Source: Clostridia bacterium
GTDB lineage: Bacteria > CBDUZB01 > JAGLHV01
NCBI GenBank assembly: GCA_030637025.1
Contig: DAOVVV010000010.1
Location: forward strand, 2,257 to 66,256
Reading direction: 5' to 3'
DNA: 64,000 nucleotides
The stretch's first letter is position 1, and each line of letters starts with the position of its first letter. Below are positions 4,256 to 62,246 of this stretch, piece after piece. Under the pieces are notes generated by a model. It saw only the letters and a program-made list of their open reading frames with translations, was not told the origin of the DNA and made no database searches. A program made the position numbers and the translations under genes.

Positions 4256-4290
4256 TTTATTTAGTATGTAGTATTTATTCTGTATTTTTA

Positions 4291-4334
4291 TCTATGGACT
4301 ATCGACTGTGGACTATGGACTGTCTTTATTTTTT
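4291..4334. repeat. 44-bp unit tctatggactatcgactgtggactatggactgtctttatttttt, copy 1 of the 'tccatag' family
   Basis: Exact direct repeat of 4414-4457. Reverse-complement copies of the 34-bp core are at 36779, 41667, 41719, 41805 and 52157. Confidence 0.85.
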
Positions 4335-4413
4335 GTTTTGAATTTTGGATTTTGAATTTAGAATTTGTTTAGGATTTCGGATTTAGTATTTAGAATTTAT
4401 TTTTTGTTTGTTG

Positions 4414-4457
4414 TCTATGGACTATCGACTGTGGACTATGGACTGTCTTTATTTTTT
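4414..4457. repeat. 44-bp 'tccatag'-family unit, copy 2
   Basis: Identical to 4291-4334. Confidence 0.85.
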
Positions 4458-4507
4458 TAGTATTTCGAATTTAGTATTTATTTTAGATTTTTGTAAAATA
4501 CAATATT

Positions 4508-4582
4508 CTGTCATTCCGCACTCGATGCGGAATCTATAATGTTTTTAAATATCAATAGATTCCTGCTTCCGCAGGAATGACA
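4508..4582. repeat. Composite REP-like element: two opposed hairpins (gtcattccgcactcgatgcggaatc … gattcctgcttccgcaggaatgaca) bounded by inverted tgtcattcc/ggaatgaca termini
   Basis: About 90% identical to 47755-47829. Each arm is a perfect 8-9 bp stem-loop. Confidence 0.85.
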
Positions 4583-5730: not shown

Positions 5731-5850
5731 AGACTGTGTCATAACTCATATTTTCATGTGGTAGCCGCAGGCTTTAGCCTGCGTTATCGTCGGAGCTTTT
5801 CCGCAGGCTAAAGCCTGCGACTACCAAAAAAGGGATTATGACACAGTCTG
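5731..5850. repeat. Nested palindrome: outer IR agactgtgtcataa/ttatgacacagtct enclosing a 23-bp-stem hairpin gtagccgcaggctttagcctgcg…cgcaggctaaagcctgcgactac
   Basis: Read directly. Each arm also contains the internal palindrome gcaggc-ttta-gcctgc (cruciform-capable). Confidence 0.8.
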
Positions 5851-6068
5851 TTCGCAGGAGTGACATTGATTTATTATTGTTGTCGTTCCCAATGTTGTTT
5901 CCCGCCTTTGAAAAAAGTGTAAACGATGTCCCCGGTTTAAAATGTAAACCATGTTTGTGTTGCACATTTGTTAGATACCCCACAGCAAGTTAATTTAAAT
6001 TTTGCCATGTAAAAAATCTTATCTCTTTATGTGTGTTTTTTTCATCCCCGGAAATTTATTATTTTTTT

Positions 6069-10265: not shown

Positions 10266-10982
10266 TTGATCGACCTACATTCACATATATTACCGGAACT
10301 AGACGACGGAGCAAAAACAGTAGAAGAAGCTCTTCAAATGTGCCGTATAGCAGAAGCAGACGGGATAACTACCATTGTTGCTACTCCGCACAGTATGAAT
10401 GGTATATATTTAAATAAAAAAGAAACTGTTTGCCGGAAGGTTGATGAATTTAACAATACATTAAAAAAAGAAGAAATAAATATAAATGTTTTACCGGGAT
10501 TGGATTTACACCTTTATCCGGAATTAATTCTTCATCTTAAAGAAGGAAAAATTTTAACTTTAAACAACCGGGGATGTTATTTAATTATAGAATTTCCGGA
10601 GGTGATTTCTTCTCATATTGAATCTGTTTGTTTTAATTTGCAGGTTTTGGGAGTAATTCCTGTTATTAGTCATCCGGAGCGAAATTATTTTTTTCGGAAA
10701 AATCCACAAGTTTTACAGGGTTTTGTAAATAGGGGAGCTTTGGTACAGGTAACTGCTATGAGTATAACCGGAGAATTTGGTAAAGAAGCGGAAAAAGCAG
10801 TGAAAAATTTTCTTAAAAAAAATTTAGTACATATTATTGCTACAGATGCGCATTCTATAGATAGGCGTCCGCCCCTTCTTTCTTCAGCAGTTAAAGTAGC
10901 AGCGAAAATTGTGGGTAAAGAACAAGCCTGGAGAATGGTTACTACTATTCCCGAAAAGATTATAAACCAAAAAAGGGCTTAA
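10266..10982 (+). CDS. PHP-family protein-tyrosine phosphatase (CpsB/CapC/YwqE-like), TTG start
   Basis: N-terminal HSHILPELDDGA metal-binding motif and the overall PHP-domain pattern (…ATPH…SHPER…DAHS). Sits next to the BY-kinase gene. Confidence 0.8.
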   Translation: MIDLHSHILPELDDGAKTVEEALQMCRIAEADGITTIVATPHSMNGIYLNKKETVCRKVDEFNNTLKKEEININVLPGLDLHLYPELILHLKEGKILTLNNRGCYLIIEFPEVISSHIESVCFNLQVLGVIPVISHPERNYFFRKNPQVLQGFVNRGALVQVTAMSITGEFGKEAEKAVKNFLKKNLVHIIATDAHSIDRRPPLLSSAVKVAAKIVGKEQAWRMVTTIPEKIINQKRA

Positions 10983-30226: not shown

Positions 30227-31356
30227 AGATAATGTTTTGGATATTTATAACAATTGTTTTTTATGTTTATTTTGGTTATCCATTGTTATTGATAGTTATT
30301 TCAAAATTCATTAAAAAACCTGTAAAAAGTGAAAAGATAGAACCTTTAGTCTCAATAATTATTACTGCTTACAACGAAGAAAAAAATATCCAAGAAAAAC
30401 TTGATAATACTTTGGCCATTGATTATCCAAAAGATAAATTGGAAATCATTATTGCTTCCGACGGTTCTACAGATAGGACTAATGAAATAGTAAGAGAATT
30501 TGAGGATAAGAGAGTAAAATTAGTTTATGAGCTTACGCACAAAGGTAAATCTTCAATTCAGAATAAAGCAGTGGAAAAAGCTAAAGGTGAAATATTAGTT
30601 TTTTCAGATGCTACATCTATGTATAAAGAAGATGCATTAAAGAAATTAATTTCTAATTTTAATGATGAAAAAGTAGGATGTGTTACAGGAAAAGCTTGTT
30701 ATGTAAATACTGAACAAAGCTCTACTGCAGAGGGAGAAAGTATTTATTGGCGATATGAATTATTTTTAAGGAAAAAAGAAAGTGATATCGGAATATTAGC
30801 TATGGCTAGTGGATGTTTTTTTGCAGTGAGAAAAAATTGTTTTATTCTTATTGATTCTAATACCAGTGATGATTTTATTCTTCCTATGAATGTGGTAAAG
30901 AAAGGGTTTAGAGTGATTTATGATACAAATGCAATTGCTTATGATAAAGTAGTTGTTCCAGCATCAGGATTGCTCAAAACAAAAGCAAGAACTATTGGAA
31001 TGGATGTAAAAGGACTTTTTTTGAATAGGAATCTTTTAAACCCATTTTCTCATTTTGCTGTTGCCTGGTCTTTAATATCTCATAAGCTTTTGCGATGGTT
31101 GATTCCTTTTTTCTTAATGGGGTTTTTTATATGTAATTTGTTTTTATTAGATTATCATTTCTATCAAATATTCTTTGTTTTACAAATATTGTTTTATCTT
31201 CTAGCTGGTTTGGGTTATTTATTCCAGAAATTTGGTAAAAAAACTAAATTATTGGGAATACCCTTTAGTTTTTGTGTGGTTAATACTGCTGCTTTGATAG
31301 GGACATTGAAGTTTTTATTGGGCAAAGCTTCAGGAAAGTGGGAGCCAATTAGGTAA
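30223..31356 (+). CDS. Membrane-anchored glycosyltransferase family 2
   Basis: N-terminal TM, then SIIITAYNEE…IIASDGSTDRT…FSDAT GT2 motifs, then C-terminal TM helices. Confidence 0.75.
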   Translation: MKIMFWIFITIVFYVYFGYPLLLIVISKFIKKPVKSEKIEPLVSIIITAYNEEKNIQEKLDNTLAIDYPKDKLEIIIASDGSTDRTNEIVREFEDKRVKLVYELTHKGKSSIQNKAVEKAKGEILVFSDATSMYKEDALKKLISNFNDEKVGCVTGKACYVNTEQSSTAEGESIYWRYELFLRKKESDIGILAMASGCFFAVRKNCFILIDSNTSDDFILPMNVVKKGFRVIYDTNAIAYDKVVVPASGLLKTKARTIGMDVKGLFLNRNLLNPFSHFAVAWSLISHKLLRWLIPFFLMGFFICNLFLLDYHFYQIFFVLQILFYLLAGLGYLFQKFGKKTKLLGIPFSFCVVNTAALIGTLKFLLGKASGKWEPIR

Positions 31357-31409
31357 ATCCAATCCCAAGTTTCTATTTGAATAGATAGGAAGGAAAGATA
31401 AGAAGATTT

Positions 31410-32179
31410 ATGAAATATATCAAAATGGCAGTAAAGAATGTGATTCCAAAGAAATATTATACTTTAGTGAGGAGTATTTATTCTTCCATTAAATATTTTG
31501 GTTTGCGTTTTAAATGTCCCTGTTGTGGAGGAAATTTTCGTAAATTTCTATCTTGTGGTATTAAATTACGAAGAAATGCTTTATGTCCTAGGTGTGGATC
31601 TTTAGAACGACATCGTCTTTTGTACTTATACCTCAAAGATAAAACCAATTTTTTTAGTGAACAGTTAAGAGTTTTTGATATTGCTCCCATGTATTTTTTT
31701 GCAAAAAAATGTAAGAAGTTGAAAAAACTTAATTATATTAGTGTTGATATTTTATCTCCAATAGCAATGGTTAAAATGGACATTAGAAATATTAGTTTCT
31801 CTAATAATCAATTTGATTGTATAATTTGTTACCATGTTCTTGAACATATTCTTGATGATGAAAAAGCAATGAGAGAATTGTATAGAATCTTAAAGCCGGG
31901 TGGTTGGGCAATATTGCAATCACCTATAGATTACAATCGCGAGAAGACTTTAGAGGATTCTAATATCGTGTCACCTACGAGCGAGAGCGTTTTTTTGGAC
32001 AAAAAAGCCATGTTAGGATATATGGGCAAGACTATAAAGATAGACTTGAAAAGGCAGGGTTTATTGTGAAACTTGATAACTATGTTAGAGAACTAGGAAA
32101 TAATATCATCAAAAAATATGGTTTGGATAAGAATGAGAGTATATATTATTGTACCAAATCAAAATCAAAAGGGAATTAG
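31410..32179 (+). pseudogene. Class I SAM-dependent methyltransferase (Methyltransf_11-like) with an N-terminal Zn-ribbon. Interrupted by a -1/+2 frameshift near 31995-32010 (a T7/A6 homopolymer tract).
   Basis: The ORF 31410..32069 ends prematurely. The alternative frame continues …VRIYGQDYKDRLEKAGFIVKL…SKSKGN* to the TAG at 32177-32179, which is the typical methyltransferase C-terminus. The shift maps to gtttttttggacaaaaaagcc. Confidence 0.5.
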
Positions 32180-32260
32180 GGGACGTAGTTTAAAGGTTAA
32201 AAGTATTGATATATGATTGAAAAAAGGATAAACGAAACGTATGCCAAGAGAAGCCAGAAT
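32174..32260 (+). repeat. Left copy of an ~87-bp direct repeat (RAYT promoter region plus the first 7 codons ATGCCAAGAGAAGCCAGAAT) lying upstream of the Fic gene
   Basis: About 90% identical to 33640-33726. Overlaps the 3' end of the frameshifted methyltransferase. Confidence 0.8.
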
Positions 32261-32432
32261 TTTGAGGGACGTTGTCAATTTGTCAAGTTGTGATAAAAAA
32301 AGAAGAGATTAATAAAAAAGAGAAGATGTAAAGGAGAGGGGAAGAAGTAACTAAAAATAAAGCAAAAGTAATAGAAAAGATAATTAGTTAATAAAGGATG
32401 CAACGTTCCCTATATTGCTTGGAGGTATTGAG

Positions 32433-33566
32433 ATGAATCTTAAAGATTTTAAAGCTGGTGTTTATAGACAACAATATCAATATAAAAGTTTTCTACCTGA
32501 AAAAATAAATCATCCATGGATTTGGGATGATCCTAAAATCAATGTCCTATTAGAAAAAGCCACTCAATCATTAGGTGAACTTAATGCATTTTCACTTATT
32601 GTTCCAGATGTAGATGTTTTTATTCAAATGCATATTGTCAAAGAAGCACAAGCGTCAAGCAAAATAGAAGGTACAAAAACCAACATAGATGAAGCAATAA
32701 TGGATAAGAATGTTATAGTTCCTGAAAAAAGGGATGACTGGCAAGAAGTAAAAAACTATATAGCGGCAATGAAATATGCTATTAGGAAACTTGAGAAGTT
32801 ACCATTAAGCAACAGATTATTAAAAGGGATGCATAAAATTTTATTGATGGGGGCTCGTGGCAAACACAAATTACCAGGAGAGTTTCGTAGAACCCAAAAC
32901 TGGTTTGGAGGTTCAAGCCCATCAGATGCTGTTTTTGTACCACCAACCCATGATGAAGTACCGGAGCTTATGGGCGACATTGAAAAGTTTTTGCACAACG
33001 AAGAGATAGAAGTTCCTCATCTTATCAAAATAGCAATTGGGCATTATCAATTCGAGACTGTTCATCCATTTAATGATGGAAATGGCCGTTGTGGCAGATT
33101 GATGATAACATTTTATTTAGTTGCAAATAAATTGCTTATTAAACCTTCATTATATTTATCTGATTTCTTTGAAAAAAACAGAATATCTTATTATGACGCG
33201 CTTTCTCGTGTACGAGAAAGTAACGATTTATCACACTGGATAAAATTTTTCTTAAATGGAATTACAGTGACTGCAGAAAAAGGGAAGAAAACATTTCAAG
33301 GAATATTGAAACTTAAAAATGATATCGACGCAAAAATAGTAAAACTCAACAGAAAAGCTGAAAGAGGAAGAGAATTTGTTCATTACCTTTATAGTAAACC
33401 AATAGTAAGTATTAATGATGTAGTTAATTTTTTTAAGATAACTAAAAAGTCTGCCATTTCTTTGGTTAGTGATTTTGAGAAATTAGGAATATTAAAGGAG
33501 TTAACTGGATATAAAAGAAATAAACTATTTGCTTTTAGTGATTATTTGGAATTGTTCTTAAAGTAA
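32433..33566 (+). CDS. Fic/DOC-family protein (class II Fic with an N-terminal inhibitory SxxxEG helix), predicted AMPylator
   Basis: Canonical active-site motif HPFNDGNGRCGRL (HxFx[D/E]GNGRxxR). N-terminal ASSKIEGT carries the [S/T]xxxE[G/N] inhibitory motif. C-terminal wHTH-like tail. Start chosen at 32433 (ggaggtattgag-ATG). Confidence 0.8.
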   Translation: MNLKDFKAGVYRQQYQYKSFLPEKINHPWIWDDPKINVLLEKATQSLGELNAFSLIVPDVDVFIQMHIVKEAQASSKIEGTKTNIDEAIMDKNVIVPEKRDDWQEVKNYIAAMKYAIRKLEKLPLSNRLLKGMHKILLMGARGKHKLPGEFRRTQNWFGGSSPSDAVFVPPTHDEVPELMGDIEKFLHNEEIEVPHLIKIAIGHYQFETVHPFNDGNGRCGRLMITFYLVANKLLIKPSLYLSDFFEKNRISYYDALSRVRESNDLSHWIKFFLNGITVTAEKGKKTFQGILKLKNDIDAKIVKLNRKAERGREFVHYLYSKPIVSINDVVNFFKITKKSAISLVSDFEKLGILKELTGYKRNKLFAFSDYLELFLK

Positions 33567-33634
33567 ACTATAAAAATCCATAGTTTACTTTAAGGCATCA
33601 AAGTAAACTATAAAAATCCATAGTTTACTTTGAT
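33567..33634. repeat. Two tandem copies of the hairpin aagtaaactataaaaatccatagtttactt (11-bp stem), between Fic and RAYT
   Basis: Read directly. Perfect palindromic arms. No U-tail. Confidence 0.8.
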
Positions 33635-33639
33635 AAAGG

Positions 33640-33726
33640 ATTAAGGGACGTAGTTTAAAAGTTTAAAGTATTGACATATGATTGAAAAAAGGATAAACTA
33701 AGCCTATGCCAAGAGAAGCCAGAATA
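33640..33726 (+). repeat. Right copy of the ~87-bp direct repeat: the authentic RAYT promoter and 5' coding end
   Basis: See 32174-32260. Confidence 0.8.
33671..33699 (+). promoter_or_regulatory. Putative RAYT promoter TTGACA-N17-TAAACT inside the right direct repeat
   Basis: ttgaca 33671-33676, taaact 33694-33699. The left-repeat copy is degenerate (ttgata…taaacg). Confidence 0.45.
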
Positions 33727-34695
33727 GATTATCCAGGAGCTCTGCACCATGTAATTGGAAGAGGGATAGAAAGAAGTAAAATATTTGAAGAGGATACGGA
33801 TAAGGAAAAGTTTTTACTTCGATTAAAGTTACTATTAGATAAGAGTGGTATGCAATGTTATGCATGGTGTATTATGGATAATCATTTTCATTTGTTACTT
33901 CTTACCGGGAAAACCCCGTTATCAGAATTCATGAGAAAATTACTAACGGGATATGCTGTTAATTATAATAAAGAGCACAAGAGAATTGGTCATTTATTTC
34001 AAAATAGATATAAATCAATATTATGTGATAGGGATGAATATTTGTTGCCGCTAATAAGATATATACATTTAAATCCGGTAAGAGTGAAAAAAGTGGAGAT
34101 AAATAAATTGCCTGGATATAAATGGACAAGTCATAAAGAAATGATAAATAAGCAGAAGAAAGAAGATAAATTAATAGAAGCAGAAGAAGTCTTGGGATAT
34201 TTTGGGAAGAGGAGAAAGGAATCAATAGCAGGATATGTAGAATATGTTAGAGAAGGAAAAGAATTAAGAGAAGATTATGGGGGAGGGGGATTAATAAGGA
34301 GGGCAGGAGGAATAAAAGAAATATTGAAGAGAAAAGCTGAGGAGCGAGAGCTGTATGATGAGCGGATATTAGGGTCGGGAGGATTTGTAGAAGAAACCTT
34401 GAGGAGGATGGAGCAAGAAGAAGATAAATATCCAAAGATCAGGAATATAGAGGAGCTAATAGGGAGAATCAGCAGGTATTATGGTATAGAAGTAGAAGAG
34501 ATAATAGAAACGAGGAAAAAGAAAGTAAGAGAAGCGAGGAGTGTATTAGTATATTTGGCGAGTAAATATTTAAAGGAAACAGGGGTAAAAATAGGAAAGT
34601 TGTTGGGAGTAGGAAAAGGAGCGATAAGTATAGCAAAAGAAAAAGGTAGAAATTTTTGTAAAGAGAAAGGGATTGAGGGGCACATATTACAATAA
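33706..34695 (+). mobile_element. REP-associated tyrosine transposase (RAYT; IS200-like Y1 HuH family) with a C-terminal DnaA-C-like HTH extension. Intact.
   Basis: HuH motif (DNHFHLLL), catalytic-Tyr region (FQNRYKS), and the RAYT-specific Y-I-H-L-N-P-V-R motif. No IS terminal inverted repeats. Surrounded by REP-like hairpins. Its own TTGACA-N17-TAAACT promoter is at 33671-33699. Confidence 0.75.
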
Positions 34696-34950
34696 ATTAA
34701 ACAATTGAGCAGCGTCCTTAAAATGATATGATAGGTTTTATTGAAAGCAAAAAATATTTTATGCAATAGTAAATGTTGTTTTGTACATAAAATATTGTTG
34801 TTTTGTGCATAATTGTATGGTATAGGATTTTGAAGCACAACGGAGTTTACTTGGTTGACTTAAAGGGAAAATTAGTAAACGGTCTTAGAATAAAAGAATT
34901 GGAGTTAGATTTTTACATTTTACATTAAAGATAAAAATAATGCTAAATGG

Positions 34951-34977
34951 ATAGATTCCTGCTTTTGCAGGAATGAC
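34951..34977. repeat. Family A REP hairpin in reverse orientation (atagattcctgcttttgcaggaatgac), directly downstream of the RAYT
   Basis: Read directly. Followed by the ccgcctcaggcgg module. Confidence 0.85.
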
Positions 34978-35007
34978 CCGACTAATCCTCCGCCTCAGGC
35001 GGATAAG

Positions 35008-35056
35008 GCGGAGCGGGCAGGCAACAAGGGAAGAAGGCTATTTTGCAGAAGGCTAA
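35008..35056. repeat. About 50-bp gene-proximal module …agcgggcaggcaacaagggaagaaggctattttgcagaaggctaa
   Basis: Also at 47845-47890 and 48604-48650. Each copy ends 30-100 bp upstream of a start codon (35153, 47919, 48674). Confidence 0.75.
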
Positions 35057-35152
35057 ATGCTCATTAAAATAAGGAGGGGACAGTTGGTTGTATGTTTTTC
35101 CATATGGTAAAATTATAAAAATTAAACGAGAAGGGTTAAGGAGAGATTTATT

Positions 35153-35524
35153 ATGGGCAAGGATATCAAATTAAAAGATATTGAATTAAGATTTAGATTT
35201 ATGAAAGATGAAAACTATTTATTAGATGGGTATCATATGTCTACGGAAATTAAAAAACAAGTGGAAGTTAATTTAAGAGATTATGTTAAGGAAAACAAAA
35301 ATACAATATTGTCCAGGTTAAATGCGTTGAGAAATAAACTGGAAAAGTATCCTCAATTTGCAGTAAGTGTATATTTAGATGCAGAAGTGAACGGATATTC
35401 TAATGGAAGTATCGATTTTACGTTACTTGTTTGTGCAACAATAGGTGGACGGTCTATTGTAGACAAAATTAAAGTTAAGGATAATAGATTAAACGAAATG
35501 TTTACTATTGCGACAGGAAAATAG
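35153..35524 (+). CDS. Hypothetical protein (123 aa)
   Basis: ORF with an RBS (aaggagag) and no recognisable motif. Has an extended -10 promoter-like sequence and a repeat module upstream. Confidence 0.45.
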   Translation: MGKDIKLKDIELRFRFMKDENYLLDGYHMSTEIKKQVEVNLRDYVKENKNTILSRLNALRNKLEKYPQFAVSVYLDAEVNGYSNGSIDFTLLVCATIGGRSIVDKIKVKDNRLNEMFTIATGK

Positions 35525-35620
35525 AAAGGCAGTAAAGACGAAAAAGAAGGTTTAAAGTGGTTGGGAAAGATATAAAGATAGTTGCTAAAGACGGTTACAT
35601 TGATTTCAAGAGGAGTAAAG

Positions 35621-36529
35621 ATGGAAATTTTGATTGTTTTTTTGGGTAGTTTGTTGGTTTCTTTGTTGATGATACCTTTGATAATGAAAATAGCAATAAA
35701 GAAAAGTTTTTTTGACCGGCCGGAAAATGTTTTAAAAATCCACAAAGAGCCCATCCCGCATTTGGGAGGGGTGGCTATTTTTATTAGTTTGGTGGTGGGG
35801 TTAATTACTGCCGGTTTTTTATTGGAATCATTTAAGTTTGCCGGAATTATAAGTATGGTTGTTGCTGCGGGTATAGTTTTTTTTATGGGTTTATGGGATG
35901 ATTTTAAAGAAGTTAAACCTGTTTATCGGTTTATAGCCCAGATAAGTGCAGGAATTATTCTGGTTTTGTCCGGATATAAAATAGGTTTTGTCAATTGTCC
36001 GGGTTTGAGCGGGATTTTGATTGTTCTTTATGTTTTAGGTTCGATAAACAGTATGAATTTACTGGATGGGATAGATGGATTAGCTGCCGGGGTGACCTTA
36101 ATTATTGGCTTGGGATTTTTAACGGCTTTTATTATGCAGGCTAATTTTTTTGGAATAGTTGTATCACTTATCTTTATTGGGGCGGTATGGGGTTTTTTAC
36201 CTTATAATTTTCCTAAAGCGTTTATATTTATGGGAGATAACGGAAGTACGCTTCTGGGGTTTATCTTAGCTTTTTTAGCCATAAATCTTGCTCAGTCCTC
36301 TGAGTTTAGCTGGTTTATTGCCTCGGTTGTGATTATGGGAGTGCCTATCATTGACACAGCGGTAGCAATTGCAAGGAGAATAATAAAGAAACGGCCGATT
36401 TTCCAGGGGGATCGCAGTCATATTTATGATTGGTTAATGGATAAAGGGATGAGTTCGAAAGAAACGGTATTTATTTTTTGCATAGCGGGGTTTGTTTTTC
36501 TTGTTATAGGATTGGTGGTGGGGGTATAA
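35621..36529 (+). CDS. Polyprenyl-phosphate HexNAc-1-phosphate transferase (WecA/MraY family, GT4-PNPT), the initiating phosphoglycosyl transferase
   Basis: Polytopic. Conserved PNPT motifs: …FMGLWDDFKEVKP…, NSMNLLDGIDGLAAG, FMGDNGSTLLGF. Start at 35621 (aggagtaaag-ATG) preferred over the track start at 35582. Confidence 0.8.
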   Translation: MEILIVFLGSLLVSLLMIPLIMKIAIKKSFFDRPENVLKIHKEPIPHLGGVAIFISLVVGLITAGFLLESFKFAGIISMVVAAGIVFFMGLWDDFKEVKPVYRFIAQISAGIILVLSGYKIGFVNCPGLSGILIVLYVLGSINSMNLLDGIDGLAAGVTLIIGLGFLTAFIMQANFFGIVVSLIFIGAVWGFLPYNFPKAFIFMGDNGSTLLGFILAFLAINLAQSSEFSWFIASVVIMGVPIIDTAVAIARRIIKKRPIFQGDRSHIYDWLMDKGMSSKETVFIFCIAGFVFLVIGLVVGV

Positions 36530-36778
36530 AGACGGTTAAAAGGCGGTTGAATTGGTTTAGATTGGTTTTATTGGTTAGAAAAGAAAAGATAAAAGACAGT
36601 TAAAGACAGTTAAAGACAGTTGGAAAAGACGGTTAAAAGGCGGTTGAATTGGTTTAGATTGGTTTAATCGGTTAGAAAAGAAAAGATAAAAGACAGTTAA
36701 AGACAGTTGGAAAAGACGGTTAAAAGACGGTTGAATTGGTTTAGATTGGTTTTATTGGTTGAAAAGATAAAAGAGACC
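36527..36778. repeat. About 87-bp tandem repeat, ~2.9 copies (aaagacggttaaaaggcggttgaattggtttagattggttttattggttagaaaagaaaagataaaagacagttaaagacagtt…)
   Basis: Read directly. Partial related copies at 50549-50622 and 52228-52268. Confidence 0.85.
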
Positions 36779-36896
36779 TAAAGACAGTCGATAGTCCATA
36801 GACTACAGATAAAGACAAAAGACAAAGACAAAGACAAAGACAAAGACAAAAGACAAAAGACAGAGACAGAGACAGAGACAACGACTAAAGACAAAG
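36779..36896. repeat. 'tccatag' unit (reverse orientation) followed by an (AAAGAC)n/(AGAGAC)n hexanucleotide tract of ~85 bp
   Basis: taaagacagtcgatagtccatagactacag, then aaagacaaaagacaaagacaaagacaaagacaaagacaaaagacaaaagacagagacagagacagagac. Confidence 0.85.
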
Positions 36897-36897
36897 A

Positions 36898-36924
36898 ATA
36901 GATTCCTGTTTGCACGGGAATGAC
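36898..36924. repeat. Family A REP hairpin in reverse orientation (atagattcctgtttgcacgggaatgac)
   Basis: Reverse complement of the 9091 type. Confidence 0.8.
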
Positions 36925-37000
36925 AAGATAAAAAAGACAAAGAATAAAGAGACAGTTCATAGACAGAAACTACGATTATAAATTAGGGGGGAGAAGCAAG

Positions 37001-38140
37001 ATGAGAAAAGATGAGATAATTCCGATAAACAAGCCGAATATGCCGGGTTTAAAATCTCTTTTGCCGGAATATTCAGAGGTTTTTGATAATGGAATGCTCA
37101 CTAATCATAAGTATGTGGGAATCTTTGAGGAAAGGTTAAGGGAATATCTAAGAACAGAGAATGTAGTTTGTGTTTCTTGTTGTACTTCAGGGTTGATGTT
37201 GGTAGCGAAGTGTTTAGTTTTAACCGGGGAAGTGATTGTTCCCAGTTTTACTTTTCCGGCTACGGTGCATTCTTTAATCTGGAATAATTTAACCCCTGTA
37301 TTTGTTGATTGTGATCCGGAAACTTTTAATCTGGATGTTGCCCAGGTAGAGAAAAAAATTACTGAAAAAACATCGGCTATTCTGGGGGTGTATATATTCG
37401 GTAATCCTCCGGAAATGGAGAAGTTAGAGAATTTAGCAAGTAAATATCATCTTAAATTGATATTTGATTCTGCCCATGCTTTAGGGGCCCGGTTTGGAGG
37501 AAAATTTGCCGGCAACTTCGGTGATGCAGAGGTGTTTAGTTTAGCACCTACTAAAATAATTACTTCCGGTGAAGGAGGGATAATTACTACTAAAGAGAAG
37601 ACTTTAGCGGAAAAATTAAGATTAGCCCGTAATTATGGAAATCCCGGTGATTATGATTGTTCTTTGCTGGGGTTGAATGCCAGAATGAATGAGTTGAGTG
37701 CAATATTGGGTTTAAAGAGTATGAATTTATTAGAGGGTAGTATTGCTAAAAGAGAAGTCCTTGTAGATTTATATAAAAGAGAATTGAGTAAAATTGAGGG
37801 AATAGATTTTCAGAAGATTAAAGAGGGGAATCGGACTACTTTTAATTATTTTGCTATCTTAATTAATCCCCGGAAGTTTGGTATGAACAATAAAAAGTTA
37901 CTTTTAGCTTTGAAAGAAAAGGGAATAATGACCCGTATTTATTTTTATCCTCCGGTACACAGGCAAAAGGTTTATAAACAATATTATGCTACATATATAA
38001 ATAGTCTTCCCTGTACGGATAAAATAGCCGATTCAATTATTTGTTTGCCTCTTTATTCGGATATGGGGGAAGAGAGGGTTTTGAGGGTATGTGAGGCAAT
38101 AAAGGATTTGGGCGGGAATACAAGGCATGAAAGAGGTTGA
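37001..38140 (+). CDS. DegT/DnrJ/EryC1/StrS-family PLP-dependent sugar aminotransferase
   Basis: …FDSAHALGARFGGKFAGNFGDAEVFSLAPTKIITSGEGGIITT… (PLP-lysine in APTK). Typical length and N-terminal pattern. Confidence 0.85.
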   Translation: MRKDEIIPINKPNMPGLKSLLPEYSEVFDNGMLTNHKYVGIFEERLREYLRTENVVCVSCCTSGLMLVAKCLVLTGEVIVPSFTFPATVHSLIWNNLTPVFVDCDPETFNLDVAQVEKKITEKTSAILGVYIFGNPPEMEKLENLASKYHLKLIFDSAHALGARFGGKFAGNFGDAEVFSLAPTKIITSGEGGIITTKEKTLAEKLRLARNYGNPGDYDCSLLGLNARMNELSAILGLKSMNLLEGSIAKREVLVDLYKRELSKIEGIDFQKIKEGNRTTFNYFAILINPRKFGMNNKKLLLALKEKGIMTRIYFYPPVHRQKVYKQYYATYINSLPCTDKIADSIICLPLYSDMGEERVLRVCEAIKDLGGNTRHERG

Positions 38141-38198
38141 CAAAGAAAAGTTCATAGTTTAGGGAAAGAAATTGCTGGTTAAATAAGGGGAAGAAAGA

Positions 38199-40028
38199 AT
38201 GAAACATTTAAGGATTAGAATTTTATTAATAATAACTGATTTAATATTTATTAATGTTGCTTTGATATTTAGTTTCTTTTTAAGATTTGATACTCACTTT
38301 CCACCTCTTTATTGGGCTTTATATACGCGTAGTTTTTGGTTTTATTCGGGTATGACTATCGGTGTGTTTTATTTCTTTGAGTTTTATCATCATGATTGGC
38401 GTTATATGACGGTGCGTAATGTTTTTCGTATTTTTATGTCGGTAAATATAAGCATTGCTATATATATTGTCTCTCTTTATTTTATCAACAATCTTTCTTT
38501 GCCGCGGACAGTAGCAATAATGACTTCTATTATTACTACCGGTTTGGTTGGCGGGAGTAGATTGTTAATTTATTTAGGTTTTTCTTATTGGAAGAAATTT
38601 AATAATATGAGAAATCATCGCTGTAAAAAAGTAATTATTATAGGTGCCGGGAGTTGTGGGGAATTGTTAGTTCGGGATATGGAAAAAAACGGTTATGTTC
38701 CTTACCGGCCGGTAGGTTTTCTCGATGATAATTCGGCCAAAAAGGGAATGATTATCCGGGATATTCCTATTTTAGGCAAGATTGAAGAAGCGGAAAAATG
38801 GGTTAAAGAGAAAAAAGCAGTCATGCTTATTATTGCTATTCCCTCAATAGCCGTTGAGCGAACAAAAGAAATTATTTCTTTATGTGAAAAGGCAGGGGTA
38901 GAATTAAAGAGGGTTCCTTCTCTTTTTAATATCCTGGATGGTTCTTTGCAGGTTAGTCAAATAGGGGAGGTTAAAGCGGAAAATGTTTTAGAGAGGGAGG
39001 TGCATTTTAAAAAAAATGCTACAACAGCTAAATTTCTAAAAGGGAAAATAGTGATGGTAACCGGGGCTGGGGGTTCTATCGGAGCAGAATTGTGTAGGCA
39101 GATTGTTAATTTTAATCCGCGCCAGTTAGTCTTGTTAGATAATTCCGAGCATTCACTTTATGCAATATATATGGAATTATTAAATAAATCTTCTCAGTCT
39201 ATTCTTAAACCGGTGATTGCCGATATTCAACATAAAACAAAGATGAAGAGTGTTTTTAAAAATTGTGTTCCCCAGATTATTTTTCATGCAGCAGCTTATA
39301 AACATGTGCCTTTAATGGAAGAAAGTATAGATGTAGCTATTAAAAACAATATCGGAGGAACCAAAAATATAGCTGCTTTGGCAGTTGAACATAAGGTAGA
39401 AAAATTTGTAATGATATCTACAGATAAGGCTGTTAATCCTACCAGTATTATGGGGGCTACTAAACGGGTTGCGGAAAAAGTAGTACAGTCTTTACATAAT
39501 GTGGAGCAGACGAGTTTTTGTGCAGTCCGATTCGGCAATGTTTTAGATAGTAGCGGGAGTGTTTTACCTTTATTTAGAAAACAGATAGCACAGGGAGGCC
39601 CTTTGACTGTGACTCATCCTGAAGTAATCAGGTACTTTATGACGATTTCCGAAGCGGTACATTTAGTTTTGACGGCGGGTAGTATGAGTCAGGGCGGAGA
39701 GCTTTTTGTGCTTAATATGGGAAAACCGGTGAAAATTCTTAATATGGCGGAATCGTTGATCAGGTTATCAGGTTTATGTCCGTATACAGATATCGATATA
39801 GAATTTACCGGGTTAAGGCCGGGTGAAAAATTATATGAAGAACTTTTAACTAAAAAAGAAAATGTATTAAAGACGGAGAATGATAAAATATTTACGACTT
39901 TTTCAGGTAAGGTAGAAAAAGAGCCGTTATTTGAGGAAGTTGAGAAACTTTGGCATTTAGCTGATAAGCAAGACTTGGATATGGCTATGCTTAAATTGAA
40001 ACAACTTGTTCCGGAATATAAAAATTAA
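38199..40028 (+). CDS. Membrane-anchored UDP-GlcNAc 4,6-dehydratase (CapD/WbpM/PglF family)
   Basis: Four N-terminal TM helices, then a CoA-binding-like region, then an SDR Rossmann fold (VTGAGGSIGAEL) with the YxxxK dehydratase core. Confidence 0.85.
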   Translation: MKHLRIRILLIITDLIFINVALIFSFFLRFDTHFPPLYWALYTRSFWFYSGMTIGVFYFFEFYHHDWRYMTVRNVFRIFMSVNISIAIYIVSLYFINNLSLPRTVAIMTSIITTGLVGGSRLLIYLGFSYWKKFNNMRNHRCKKVIIIGAGSCGELLVRDMEKNGYVPYRPVGFLDDNSAKKGMIIRDIPILGKIEEAEKWVKEKKAVMLIIAIPSIAVERTKEIISLCEKAGVELKRVPSLFNILDGSLQVSQIGEVKAENVLEREVHFKKNATTAKFLKGKIVMVTGAGGSIGAELCRQIVNFNPRQLVLLDNSEHSLYAIYMELLNKSSQSILKPVIADIQHKTKMKSVFKNCVPQIIFHAAAYKHVPLMEESIDVAIKNNIGGTKNIAALAVEHKVEKFVMISTDKAVNPTSIMGATKRVAEKVVQSLHNVEQTSFCAVRFGNVLDSSGSVLPLFRKQIAQGGPLTVTHPEVIRYFMTISEAVHLVLTAGSMSQGGELFVLNMGKPVKILNMAESLIRLSGLCPYTDIDIEFTGLRPGEKLYEELLTKKENVLKTENDKIFTTFSGKVEKEPLFEEVEKLWHLADKQDLDMAMLKLKQLVPEYKN

Positions 40029-41054: not shown

Positions 41055-41693
41055 ATGAATCAAAAAAATGTTTTCGCAGGGAAGAGAAAGTATTATTTCA
41101 TTAATGAGTATTTTCAGATAAAAGACATATTGAAAGTTTGTTTTTTGGTAGTTGTCGGATGTGTTATTTTTGCTGCAATTATATATCTTTTTTCAAAGCA
41201 GACGATGACTACTTCTTTTGAAAATTCCCGTTTAGTGTTGAAAAGTACGGCGGATTTTATTTTTCCTGCTCTTGTTTCCAGTATGATTGTGGTAATTACG
41301 GTGTTAAGTATTATTTGCCTTATAGTAGTTTTATTTGCTTCTCAAAATATAATAAGGCCGATGTGTATTTTAGCCGGGAAGGTCAAGGATATGGGTGAAG
41401 GGGACCTTACTTTAACTATTAATTCAACGGCTCAGGTTGAAATGGGAGAAGTGGTTGGAAATTTTAATGAAATGCTTGAAAAACTTAAAAGCCGTATATT
41501 GCAAATAAAAGGAATAAACGGTGAATTAGGAGAAAACATTGAAAAATTAAGGAAAATACGCGGAACCTGTTCACAAGAAGAAGCTAAATTAATAGAAGAG
41601 TTATTGAAAAAACAAGAAGAAATAAGTGAGAGGCTTGCTTATTTTAAAACGGAGAGTAAAGACAAAAGACAGTCCATAGTCCACAGTCAATAG
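41055..41693 (+). CDS. Small membrane protein with two TM helices and a HAMP domain; no output domain
   Basis: TM1 (VCFLVVVGCVIFAAIIYLF) and TM2 (FIFPALVSSMIVVITVLSIICLIVVLFA), followed by a HAMP-like IIRPMCILAGKVKDMGEGDLTLTI…FNEMLEKLK. The last 12 codons and the stop lie inside the intergenic repeat mosaic. Confidence 0.55.
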   Translation: MNQKNVFAGKRKYYFINEYFQIKDILKVCFLVVVGCVIFAAIIYLFSKQTMTTSFENSRLVLKSTADFIFPALVSSMIVVITVLSIICLIVVLFASQNIIRPMCILAGKVKDMGEGDLTLTINSTAQVEMGEVVGNFNEMLEKLKSRILQIKGINGELGENIEKLRKIRGTCSQEEAKLIEELLKKQEEISERLAYFKTESKDKRQSIVHSQ

Positions 41694-42200
41694 TCCATAG
41701 TCCATAGATAAAGAATAAAGACAGTCCATAGTCCACAGTCAATAGTCCATAGACAAAGACAAAGACAAAGACAAAGAATAAAGAATAAAGAATAAAGAAT
41801 AAAGACAGTCTATAGTCGATAGTCGATAGTCCATAGACAAAGAATAAAGATAGTCCATAGATAAAGACTAAAGAATAAATACTAAATTCAAAATACAAAA
41901 TTCTAAACAAAGACAAAGAATAAAAATAAATACTAAATAACAACTTTAAACAAAGCAAGCTTTGCAACTACTGGATTCCGCATCATCCGCCTCAGGCGGA
42001 GCGGAATGACAACATAAAAACATAAATTCAAAACAAAGACAAAGACAAAAGATAAAGAGTAAAAACAGTCCATAGAACAGAAACAAATGCAAAGAATAAA
42101 TCCCCCTAACCCCCTTTTCCAAAGGGGGAAACTCAATGAGGGCTGTTGCTTTGCTCCAGCAAAATAAAGAGAAGACGGTAAAGATAGTCCATAGACAGAA
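41660..42200. repeat. About 540-bp mosaic repeat block: 3 'tccatag' units, (AAAGAC)4, (ATAAAGA)4, an aaatactaaattc module, a ccgcctcaggcgg/ggaatgac hairpin, the poly-C/G hairpin (42098-42131) and a ttgctccagcaa module
   Basis: All sub-modules have copies elsewhere in the window. The block overlaps the last codons of the HAMP gene. Confidence 0.85.
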
Positions 42201-42425
42201 GATGCAGTTATAAGTTATTAGTTATGAGTTTTTAGTTAAAAAAGTTTGAAGTTTGAAGTTGGGATTTGGGAATTTGAAAGAAGAGTCAAACATAGTTTAT
42301 GACAATGTATGACGCGAACGAAGTGAGTATATGACTATTTGTGACAGTGATTGTAAAGCAAGCAAAATACTAATCTGTAATGAGGAATAACAAATTGGTT
42401 AGGGTGAATAGCAATTGGGGAGATT

Positions 42426-47754: not shown

Positions 47755-47829
47755 CTGTCATTCCGCACTTGATATGGAATCTATAATGTGCTTGAAATAT
47801 CAATAGATTCCTGCTTTCGCAGGAATGAC
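47755..47829. repeat. Second copy of the 75-bp composite REP-pair element
   Basis: ctgtcattccgcacttgatatggaatctataatgtgcttgaaatatcaatagattcctgctttcgcaggaatgacc versus the copy at 4508. Confidence 0.85.
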
Positions 47830-47844
47830 CCTCTTTAAGGACTG

Positions 47845-47890
47845 GCGGGCAGGCAATAAAGATAAAAAGACTATTTTGCAAAAGTCTAAA
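47845..47890. repeat. 50-bp gene-proximal module copy (ggcgggcaggcaataaagataaaaagactattttgcaaaagtctaa)
   Basis: See 35008. Confidence 0.7.
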
Positions 47891-47918
47891 AATATTTAAA
47901 AAAAGGAGGTAATATAAA

Positions 47919-48587: not shown

Positions 48588-48650
48588 CCGCCTGAGGCGG
48601 AGCGGGCAGGCAAAAAAGGTAAAAAGGCTATTTTGCAGAAGTCTAATTAT
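48588..48650. repeat. ccgcctgaggcgg hairpin plus a 50-bp gene-proximal module copy
   Basis: ccgcctgaggcggagcgggcaggcaaaaaaggtaaaaaggctattttgcagaagtctaa. Confidence 0.75.
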
Positions 48651-48673
48651 TTTATAGGAAAGGAGGGGTTTTT

Positions 48674-50548: not shown

Positions 50549-50694
50549 AAAAAGACAGTTGGAAAAGACAGTTAAAAGACAGTTAAATTGGTTGAATTGG
50601 TTTTATTAGTTTAGATTGGTTCAAAGACAAAAGACAAAAGACAAAGATAAAGACAATCTTTTCCCTCTTTGAAAAAGGGGGTTAGGGGGATTTA
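50549..50694. repeat. Mosaic: a partial 87-bp-family copy, an (AAAGAC)n tract (50623-50656), and the poly-C/G terminator-like hairpin (50658-50694)
   Basis: Read directly. Lies after yjbQ. Confidence 0.8.
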
Positions 50695-51319: not shown

Positions 51320-52152
51320 AAAAAATAATCGTGTTGACTAATCCCCAAAAAAAAGAAGTTAAGAGTATTTTCCCTTCCCTGGTAAATTGGTTGGAAAAGA
51401 AAAAAATAGAGGTTTCAGTAAACCAGACCGGTAAAGAGAATTTTAAAAAAACGGATTTGGTGGTTGTTTTAGGTGGGGATGGAACAATATTAAAAGCAGC
51501 AAGATTGGTGGTGCCTTTTGGGATTCCCGTTCTGGGAATTAATTTGGGAGAATTTGGGTTTTTATCCGGAATAAATGTTAAAAGTCTGTATTCTACCCTG
51601 GAGCGGATTTTAAAGAAGGATTATTATATAGAGGAAAGGATTCTTCTCACTGCTAAGGTAATAGGTCCATTATCCTCTAATAAAAAGAATAACTCGAAGT
51701 TTTTTTTCTTATCTTTAAATGATATAGTCGTTAAAAATGCGAGTTCAGCAAGAGTAATTAAGTTAAAAGTAAAACTGGGAAGTAAACAAATTACCCAATG
51801 GGTGGGAGATGGGTTAATTGTGGCTACTCCCACGGGTTCAACGGCATATTCATTAGCCGCCTTTGGACCCATTGTTTATCCAACTCTGCCGGTGTTAATT
51901 ATTACTCCGATTTGTCCTCATCTTTTATCGTTCAGGTCTTTAGTATTACCGGCCGGTGAATTAATTTCTATTCAAGTGGATTCTGGAAAGAATGTGATGC
52001 TTTCTGTAGATGGCCAGGAAGAAATGAATTTGGGATATAATGATATTATTGAGATAAAACAGGCGAAGAAAAAACTTAAATTGGTTTGTTTATCTGGGAA
52101 TGCGGATTATTTTCAGATTTTAAATAAAAAACTTAAATGGGGAAAAAGGTAA
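51316..52152 (+). CDS. nadK: NAD+ kinase, GTG start overlapping the rsmD stop
   Basis: GGDGT motif (VVLGGDGTILKAA), NDIVV, and DGLIVATPTGSTAYSLAAFGPIV signatures. Confidence 0.85.
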   Translation: MKKIIVLTNPQKKEVKSIFPSLVNWLEKKKIEVSVNQTGKENFKKTDLVVVLGGDGTILKAARLVVPFGIPVLGINLGEFGFLSGINVKSLYSTLERILKKDYYIEERILLTAKVIGPLSSNKKNNSKFFFLSLNDIVVKNASSARVIKLKVKLGSKQITQWVGDGLIVATPTGSTAYSLAAFGPIVYPTLPVLIITPICPHLLSFRSLVLPAGELISIQVDSGKNVMLSVDGQEEMNLGYNDIIEIKQAKKKLKLVCLSGNADYFQILNKKLKWGKR

Positions 52153-52156
52153 AAAA

Positions 52157-52275
52157 ACAGTCCATAGTCCACAGTCGATAGTCCATAGACAAAGACAAAG
52201 AATAAATACTAAATTCGAAAGTCAAATAAAAGACAGTTTAATTGGTTGAATTGGTTTAGATTGGTTCAAAGACAA
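52157..52275. repeat. Mosaic: 'tccatag' unit, (AAAGAC)2, an aaatactaaattc module, and a partial 87-bp-family copy
   Basis: Begins 5 bp after the nadK stop. Confidence 0.8.
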
Positions 52276-52327
52276 AAGATAAAGGTAAAGATAAAAAATT
52301 TAAGATTTAAAATTTGGGAGTTAAAAA

Positions 52328-61833: not shown

Positions 61834-61932
61834 TACACCCAGGGGTAAATGAGGTAGTTGTTAATTTGGTATGTAGTATAATTATTGACATAAGCGTAGA
61901 GGACATCTATTTTAAAATCGCTATAAATCCAC

Positions 61933-62200
61933 GTTTAATGACTTAATCAATCTAATAGCCGAAAAATTAGTAGTTGAGGCAGCAGAATTAAAAGGAAACA
62001 AAAGGGATGAAAAAATAGCCAAAGCCAGAGCTTTGATATCATACATTGGGCAAAGGTATTTTGGGGAGCAGGGTGCTGCAATAGGCTTAGAATTAAATAA
62101 GAGCAATGCCAGTATAAGTATAGCATATAATCGAGGGAAGAAAATAATAGAGAAGGATGTGGGGGCAAAAAATATTCTTAATGACATATTAACTTTTTAA
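61933..62200 (+). pseudogene. 5'-truncated remnant of a RAYT-like gene: DnaA-C-like HTH C-terminal domain only
   Basis: Translation …LINLIAEKLVVEAAELKGNKRDEKIAKARALISYIGQRYFGEQGAAIGLELNKSNASISIAYNRGKKI… aligns with the RAYT 33706..34695 C-terminus (ELIGRISRYYGIEVEEI…REARSVLVYLASKYL…GVKIGKLLGVGKGAISIA…KG). No start codon; a stop lies upstream in frame. Confidence 0.55.
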
Positions 62201-62246
62201 CTACTTAACAATGTCCCCTAAAGTCCCACTAAAGTCTAAATGGGGT

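Follow-up and report, generated by a model that had tools for sequence, protein, structure and literature searches.

A TIRYT-type Y1 HUH gene with a DnaA-like C-terminal domain probably belongs to a TIRtron and not to the hairpin repeats of its genome

We examined a 64,000-nucleotide stretch of DNA from a Clostridia bacterium (GenBank assembly GCA_030637025.1, contig DAOVVV010000010.1, positions 2,257 to 66,256 of the forward strand), which we will call the window. A prediction made from the sequence alone had described the gene at 33706-34695 as a REP-associated tyrosine transposase (RAYT) with a DnaA-like C-terminal domain, flanked by hairpins of the repetitive extragenic palindrome (REP) type that the enzyme might recognize or disperse. 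We propose that 33644-34722 is instead a TIRtron, a unit of about 1.08 kb that carries a TIRYT gene (subclass 2.1.2 in the classification of Quentin et al.) between terminal inverted repeats (TIRs). The right TIR has decayed, and the nearby hairpins would be unrelated to the element. We are fairly confident of this explanation.

The protein and its domains

The open reading frame (ORF) at 33706-34695 is on the forward strand, as are the other features described below unless noted. It is intact, starts with ATG, and encodes 329 amino acids (aa). As predicted, it is a Y1 HUH gene: aa 15-121 match Y1_Tnp from Pfam (PF01797; 44.8 bits, with a cut-off of 23), and the protein contains the HUH motif (H60-F-H62, codons at 33883-33891), QNRYKS, and YIHLNPVR. 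The DnaA-like C terminus is also borne out by Pfam, as aa 248-301 match Bac_DnaA_C (PF08299; 34.9 bits, with a cut-off of 31.5), and the suggested check with these two models gave scores above both cut-offs. The equivalog model for RAYT from NCBIfam (NF047646) matches aa 5-131 with 57.2 bits, which is below its cut-off of 80.

In an alignment of 47 relatives, nine residues are invariant: H60, H62, R101, Y102, S104, Y119, N123, P124, and R278. All 47 relatives match Y1_Tnp and 40 of the 47 match Bac_DnaA_C. The original prediction placed the catalytic tyrosine in QNRYKS. Because Y119-IHL-N-P (codons at 34060-34077) fits "Y---NP", the signature by which class-2 TnpA_Y1 proteins are known (PMC6006769), the catalytic residue is most likely Y119 of YIHLNP, and the tyrosine of QNRYKS is probably not catalytic.

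A search of the PDB with the single sequence gave no relevant match; a family profile was needed. With the profile, aa 237-321 matched DnaA chains (2hcb/1l8q, E 1e-7). An AlphaFold model of the full protein, built from the alignment (pLDDT 87.4), agrees with both domains. Its top Foldseek match in the PDB is 4er8_A, the RAYT of E. coli in complex with a REP hairpin (E 8e-6). This superposition has 150 columns in the N-terminal 150 residues and a TM score of 0.70 (normalized to the target), and the next matches are the transposases of ISDra2, IS608, and IS200. The C terminus of the model resembles the DNA-binding domains of DnaA (3pvp_B, TM 0.71; 1j1v_A, TM 0.69, root-mean-square deviation 1.8). 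By sequence profiles and by fold, this part of the protein (aa 246-321, encoded by 34441-34668) is a helix-turn-helix (HTH) like domain IV of DnaA. In the family alignment, the basic-loop arginine of DnaA is retained as R278, while the "DHTTV" recognition signature of DnaA is not. A conserved middle region lies between the HUH/Y1 domain and the HTH.

The gene is under purifying selection. Compared to its relative in locus L082, which is 80% identical at the amino acid level and lies in a different context, beside an IS110-family gene, dN/dS is 0.20, and all three regions of the protein are constrained.

The family is large. At least 7,900 database proteins matched, most of them with the two-domain architecture. 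The named relatives are chiefly from metagenome-assembled genomes (MAGs) of Omnitrophota, along with Chlamydiota, Desantisbacteria, and Thermodesulfobacteriota. Among 1.84 billion cluster representatives, we found 1,152 clusters (at 50% identity) with E <= 1e-30 and 15,088 with E <= 1e-10; most of the top matches covered the full length. In scans of genomes and metagenome contigs, the top match was 57% identical, and the majority of the matches were short IS200-like proteins.

Terminal inverted repeats

A TIR of 25-30 bp, with the tip GGGGACGT(T/A)G, travels with the gene. We compared the window to L082, to six MAG loci whose proteins are 41-57% identical (L001-L006), and to loci that were reached via identical-protein look-ups (L163-L174). 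Upstream of every compared gene there is the motif (G)GGGACGT(T/A)G and then two sub-repeats of 8-9 nt, and a second copy, in inverted orientation, lies over the gene's final codons or its stop codon. The sub-repeats are GTTTAAA-like and vary between lineages; the tip is constant. The distance from the tip to the ATG is 63-67 nt in 10 relatives' loci, and the left tip in the window is 62 nt upstream of the ATG. These positions are fixed across relatives with 41-80% amino acid identity, from several phyla and in different contexts.

To score the TIRs, we locally aligned each upstream region to the reverse complement of the gene's 3' end and compared the score to 200 shuffles. In eight of the relatives' loci, the scores were 32-64, and each exceeded all 200 shuffles. 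The paired ends, which are perfect or nearly so in most relatives, match at 32/32 positions in L164, 26/26 in L006, 24/24 in L001, and 24/26 in L167.

The left TIR of the window (33644-33668), with the tip AGGGACGTAG and two GTTTAAA sub-repeats, is the window's best match to the TIR profile. The right TIR (34683-34722, reverse strand, with a profile match at 34717-34696) lies over the last codons and the stop codon and has decayed, as it has in L003. It matches the left end at 25/36 positions, and it is recognizable only by its position and by its homology to the clear right TIR of L082 (GGGGGACGTTGTTTAATAGTTTAAT), of which it is the positional homologue. The DNA similarity between the window and L082 starts and stops at the TIR tips.

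No hairpin forms at either end of the element (z = +0.46 and +1.37). The gene's terminal structures are inverted repeats, not hairpins. The prediction that IS200-type terminal structures are missing was right, although the gene does have terminal repeats of another kind. Short forms of the motif are not informative: bare GGGGWSRY is no more frequent in the window than expected (12 versus 11.6), and GGGACGT alone is not significant there (3 found, 1.6 expected). The credibility of the TIRs rests only on their position and on the longer profile. We treated matches to the profile, or matches with mismatches, as chance if they were inside coding regions (such as those at 10570, 17177, and 44202).

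Between the left TIR and the gene is a promoter-like site (33671-33699; TTGACA, 17 nt, TAAACT; 10/12 matches). The -10 box ends 6 nt before the ATG and there is no Shine-Dalgarno sequence. The same layout (-35 box, 17 nt, -10 box, 6 nt, ATG) recurs in L082, L002, L003, and L004. Because of this spacing, the missing Shine-Dalgarno sequence, and the recurrence in relatives, we infer that the mRNA is leaderless.

Hairpins near the gene

The hairpins that were predicted to flank the gene are real. The one at 34955-34974 has an 8-bp stem (z = -4.1), and the twin hairpins at 33557-33634 are identical to each other and have 15-bp stems (z = -11.4). The first is a copy of hairpin A (ATTCC-N10-GGAAT), which occurs 9 times in the window, in seven intergenic regions, versus 0.21 times expected. 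If the protein were a genuine RAYT that recognizes or disperses this family (ATTCCTGC-N4-GCAGGAAT), that could account for the abundance of the hairpins and for the copy in the intergenic region downstream of the gene. The protein's fold is closest to that of the E. coli RAYT with its bound hairpin, and some of the relatives are called "RayT" in COG-style annotations. We nevertheless consider this explanation very improbable. Hairpin A is present on just one side of the gene, 256 nt past the stop codon and beyond the right TIR. It is within a larger composite repeat (34951-35077) that resembles 47803-47909, which is upstream of unrelated genes. With hairpin A in seven intergenic regions, it is nothing unusual that a 457-nt spacer should contain one. 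Also, among the loci that we fetched, hairpin A is present only in the window and in L081 (a contig that covers the window's own locus), and it is absent from the loci of all other relatives, including L082 with its 80% identity.

The window has no second copy of the twin hairpin, which overlaps the upstream Fic gene at its stop codon. It is part of a Fic module (32413-33635) derived from a type I restriction-modification operon: the module has 87.5% DNA identity to a segment of such an operon (L175, 3982-5203) that spans fic, the spacer between fic and hsdS, and the twin hairpin. As one hairpin lies outside the element and the other belongs to the Fic module, the gene's association with REPs is unsupported; what flanks the gene are TIRs. 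A genuine RAYT would also be expected to score above the NCBIfam cut-off, and Quentin et al. report no REP-like sequences near subclass 2.1 genes (PMC6006769). Overall, the hairpin repeats of this genome appear to be unrelated to the gene, and nothing that we found ties the gene to spreading them.

Comparison to known systems

Quentin et al. (2018) described subclass 2.1.2 as long TnpA_REP-like proteins with a C terminus of the Bac_DnaA_C, HTH_23, or HTH_28 type, and they equated it with the TIRYTs and TIRtrons of Di Nocera, De Gregorio & Rocco (2013) (PMC6006769, PMC3733652). They defined class-2 TnpA_Y1 by the HUH motif and the tyrosine motif Y---NP (PMC6006769). TIRYT genes are flanked by TIRs at a roughly constant distance, and only the majority of these have the consensus GGGGWSAS (PMC3733652).

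Our gene is similar in most of these respects. The protein is long, with a RAYT-like HUH/Y1 core, the Y---NP motif, and a C-terminal HTH of the Bac_DnaA_C type, and the locus is REP-less. The inverted repeats start with GGGG and are at a constant distance from the gene, the copy number is low, and there are occasional dispersed TIRs and TIR dimers. The DnaA-like tail is already described for subclass 2.1.2, so it is not a new feature. The decayed right TIR of the window copy is a difference. So is the host lineage, probably Omnitrophota and relatives, which was not covered by the complete-genome surveys of 2013 and 2018. In the passages that we consulted (PMC3733652, PMC6006769), we found no mention of a leaderless promoter layout, of deletion derivatives, or of solo left ends ahead of other genes (see below) for TIRYT or subclass 2.1.2.

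The E. coli RAYT, besides being the top structural match of our protein, has the HUH motif and the Tyr-x3-N-P helix in common with it. In contrast to our protein, it has a single domain of about 165 aa, and it binds and cleaves the REP/BIME hairpins that flank it. Ours has two additional regions and lacks REPs at its flanks, and the two proteins are 13% identical in the structural alignment. The C-terminal region resembles domain IV of DnaA (1j1v, 3pvp, 2hcb) in its fold and in the basic-loop arginine (R278), while the AAA+ domain III of DnaA is absent and only the domain IV region (aa 237-321) matches. Since DHTTV is not kept and the sub-repeats (GTTTAAA) are unlike the DnaA box (TTATCCACA), we do not expect the protein to bind the replication origin.

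The protein also has the HUH/Y1 fold of the IS200/IS605 transposases (IS608, ISDra2), and the chemistry of single-strand cleavage is presumably common to them. The Y1_Tnp match and this shared fold are what would favor an ordinary insertion sequence of the IS200/IS605 family, which we consider the least credible explanation of all. Those elements have subterminal hairpins and no TIRs, encode short proteins, are present in many identical copies, and often carry tnpB. Our element has no subterminal hairpins and no tnpB; its tyrosine motif is Y---NP and not of the IS200 type; and its 329-aa protein includes two extra regions. Within the window, the other copies are fragments or are just 29% identical. 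The original prediction had likewise concluded that this is not an ordinary IS200-type element, and the lack of end hairpins and of identical copies in the window agrees with it.

In sum, the HUH and Y---NP motifs, the Y1_Tnp core, and the RAYT-like fold place the protein in class 2 of TnpA_Y1, and the C-terminal HTH and the constant-distance TIRs (clear in eight relatives' loci) point to subclass 2.1.2. A RAYT in the strict sense would have flanking REPs and would reach the NCBIfam cut-off; an IS200/IS605 member would have subterminal hairpins and multiple near-identical copies, which we counted within the window. Since its motifs, domains, and TIRs all agree, and since it fails the tests for a RAYT and for IS200/IS605, the gene is most likely a member of the known TIRYT/2.1.2 kind. 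This identification of 33706-34695 draws on domains, fold, and dN/dS.

Other family members in the window

The gene was predicted to be single-copy in the window. It is the only intact copy, but the window also contains a 5'-end fragment, a TIR-bounded mini-element, and a pseudogene. The fragment, which we call LE1 (32178-32260), is an orphan left end that comprises the TIR, the promoter, and 20 nt from the start of the ORF. Over 86 nt, it shares 92% identity with 33640-33725, and it contains the second-best match to the TIR profile. The mini-element (32264-32411; 148 bp) has the ends GAGGGACGTTGTCAATTTGTCAAG and GCAACGTTCCCT, with profile matches at 32264 on the forward strand and at 32411 on the reverse strand, and its right part is conserved in L002 (2053-2230), L169, L171, and L172.

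The original prediction had reported the pseudogene as a second copy at 61933-62200, truncated at its 5' end. The truncation is correct; the pseudogene starts at about 61877, extends to 62219, is also internally deleted, and has two in-frame stops. It is divergent and reads "...YNY*HKRRGHLF*NRYKS" fused directly to the DnaA-like tail, with 29% identity in the tail. Its right TIR (62197-62219, reverse strand; GGGGACATTGTTAAG) matches the TIR profile.

At 5885-5933, on the reverse strand, there may be the tip of a solo right TIR, with the repeats GTCGTTCCC, GTTGTTTCCC, and GATGTCCCC; this is a weak match with 3 mismatches. An Rfam scan of 31000-37000 gave no match, and we saw no anomaly in G+C content across the region.

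Four deletion derivatives have kept both ends: the two in the window (32264-32411 and 61877-62219), L168 3574-3830, and L002 2053-2230. One locus is represented by two strain variants, L168 and L169, which diverge exactly at the TIR-bounded derivative. Both of these, like L082 and the window's own locus, come from the ZHAN22-2 metagenomes (ERZ23498442-ERZ23498719).

The Fic module and solo left ends

The Fic module lies between two TIR elements. Its homology to L175 starts 2 nt after the right end of the mini-element and stops 9 nt before the left TIR of the intact copy. The Fic ORF (32433-33566) has the Pfam domains Fic_N and Fic, and its closest homologues (85-90% amino acid identity) are in type I restriction-modification (R-M) operons with the order hsdM-fic-hsdS. 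We found no remnant of hsdM or hsdS in the window, where the module sits within a cluster of genes for polysaccharide synthesis.

L181, from a related genome, is syntenic with window 35138-38772 (ORF123, GT4, and aminotransferase; 79-93% nucleotide identity). At the orthologous position (L181 1963-2060), there is a solo left end (TIR, promoter, and ATG) that is 88% identical to window 33642-33699. After three codons, it is followed by a different Fic gene, of 270 aa and 28% identical. A weaker left-end-like site (L181 2949-3015) is 66 nt upstream of the ORF123 orthologue. In these few cases, the left ends resemble portable promoters, or else junctions, ahead of genes that do not encode transposases.

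These sites raise the question of whether the TIR left end could be a portable promoter combined with a recombination site, with TIRYT joining or exchanging gene modules at the tips. This would resemble a cassette system or a composite transposon, driven by a Y1 HUH enzyme. The TIR-bounded Fic module, the solo left ends in L181, and the divergence of L168 and L169 at TIR elements all hint at it, and the outermost ends (32178 or 32264, and 34722) are oriented as in a composite element. We regard this idea as speculative and doubt that it is correct.

Another subclass-2.1-like protein, of 312 aa, is encoded at L179 5820-6860. It is 43% identical to ours over the N-terminal 180 aa and, by BLAST, does not have the DnaA-like tail; a canonical TIR (GGGGTCAGGGCTACACA) is present at both ends. 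The element follows a half-size hsdS, whose reading frame ends inside the left TIR, and it adjoins a Fic gene with 85% identity to that of the window. We considered whether the element inserted into hsdS: the HsdS is half-size, but there is no second half beyond the element.

Mobile element or domesticated gene?

Under the TIRtron explanation, the unit would comprise the left TIR, the promoter of a probably leaderless mRNA, a single TIRYT gene, and the right TIR over the stop codon. The HTH would bind the two lineage-variable sub-repeats in each TIR, and the HUH domain would nick and rejoin one strand at or beside the invariant tip. Either the protein or the pairing of one TIR with the other in single-stranded DNA might bring the ends together. 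By binding at the left TIR, just upstream of the -35 box, the protein would also autoregulate its gene. As a package, sub-repeat binding, nicking and rejoining at the tip, and autoregulation seem to us about evenly balanced between right and wrong in their details. Because its right TIR has decayed, the window copy is probably no longer mobile. Still, homology breaks at the tips, deletion derivatives keep both ends, and strains differ at TIR sites, which argues that TIRYT units did move as TIR-to-TIR elements.

Several observations weigh against this account. The TIR pair of the window is not significant when taken alone (its score is 20, and the maximum from shuffles was 26). We found no empty site or target duplication, and a search based on ORF123 gave a differently organized locus. 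The gene's tip (GGGGACGT) fits the published GGGGWSAS at 6/8 positions, as compared to 7/8 for the end of the pseudogene (62211-62218; GGGGACAT) and 8/8 for L179 (GGGGTCAG). That the HTH binds the sub-repeats and that the tip is cleaved is deduced from the anatomy only, and this kind of gene has been described computationally, with every member of the subclass experimentally uncharacterized. Finally, the copy number is low, and one identical protein is found in three MAGs with unchanged synteny; both fit a stationary or domesticated gene equally well.

Such a gene would encode a host factor that binds or nicks DNA, for example an autoregulated regulator. The TIRs would be its operators and the solo left ends its regulon, and there would be no transposition. 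This is a serious partial rival, and it overlaps partly with the TIRtron reading; on balance we think it rather unlikely. Purifying selection on all three regions of the protein would fit it, as would the low copy number, the identical protein and synteny in the three MAGs, the decay of the right TIR in both the window and L003, and the position of the left TIR directly upstream of the -35 box. So would the left-end-like sites 66 nt before non-transposase genes (in L181, before the 270-aa Fic gene and ORF123; in the window, LE1 before the Fic gene). On the other hand, several lineages have perfect inverted copies of 24-32 bp at both ends, and these are hard to read as operators because the right copy is within the 3' end of the gene. 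The deletion derivatives that keep both ends also count against it, as does the gene's presence in unrelated contexts with homology stopping at the tips. (We also considered conserved synteny with a neighboring methyltransferase gene, in the window and in L164, and rejected it: the two methyltransferases are not orthologous.)

Additional observations

Just outside many of the TIRs there are short partial duplications of the tip, or "stutters" (L164 2385-2420 and 3480-3510; L167 3990-4020; L003 2907-2965; L168 3575-3610; window 5885-5933). Examples are two copies of GGGGAACGGTA ahead of GGGGACGT, a stretch of 31 nt at the left end of L003 that is duplicated in tandem, and the three motifs like the tip at window 5885-5933. 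The stutters may be footprints of end processing, or they may be due to slippage.

In two unrelated loci, the TIR tip adjoins an IS110-family element, and both the nucleotide at which they meet and their relative orientation are the same (L082:4930-4950, at the left TIR; L004:3975-4000, at the right TIR). At the junction, ...AAACAATATACA is followed directly by ACGTTGTT..., and the 5' regions of the two IS110-family copies are homologous. Although there are few cases, this suggests that the IS110-family element targets the TIR tip. Some members of IS1111/IS110 target the inverted repeats of transposons.

Relatives of the gene are often beside defense-type genes. These include SMODS/DncV-like and ThiF genes (CBASS-like), a four-helix 23S_rRNA_IVP protein, a DpnI_C fragment, Fic, and type I R-M genes (for instance, L167 1-2930; L168 1108-1458 and 2708-2944). 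The neighbors hint at a preference for variable "island" regions.

The window contains several other repeats. The composite repeat with hairpin A (TGTCATTCCTGCGAAAGCAGGAATCTAT) also holds GCGGGCAGGCAA...GGCTATTTTGCAGAAGGCT and ends in an AAGGAGG ribosome-binding site before genes. Besides 34951-35077 and 47803-47909, it is found at 48602-48666, and more positions of the same repeat group are 4555, 9090, 10095, 10175, 11112, 11342, 13484, and 36898. A second hairpin family (ATTCCGCACTYGATRYGGAAT) is at 4513, 13333, and 47760, and a third (GTAGCCGCAGGCTTTAGCCTGCG) is at 5760, 8998, and 13375. No cognate enzyme for these hairpin families is evident in the window. Low-complexity direct repeats, such as runs of AAAGACAAAGAC and units of GTCCATAGTCCACAGTC, fill intergenic regions (36528-36900, 41650-42220, 4259-4500, 50573-50656, and 52141-52300), and a tandem unit of 84-97 nt is repeated three times at 36528-36795.

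Implications

The gene should not serve as the "REP-dispersing enzyme" of this genome. Our analysis instead offers a precise substrate for in vitro work: the invariant tip together with the variable sub-repeats. If these sub-repeats are indeed read by the DnaA-like domain, then this would be a Y1 HUH enzyme that is guided by the recognition of double-stranded DNA and not by hairpins.

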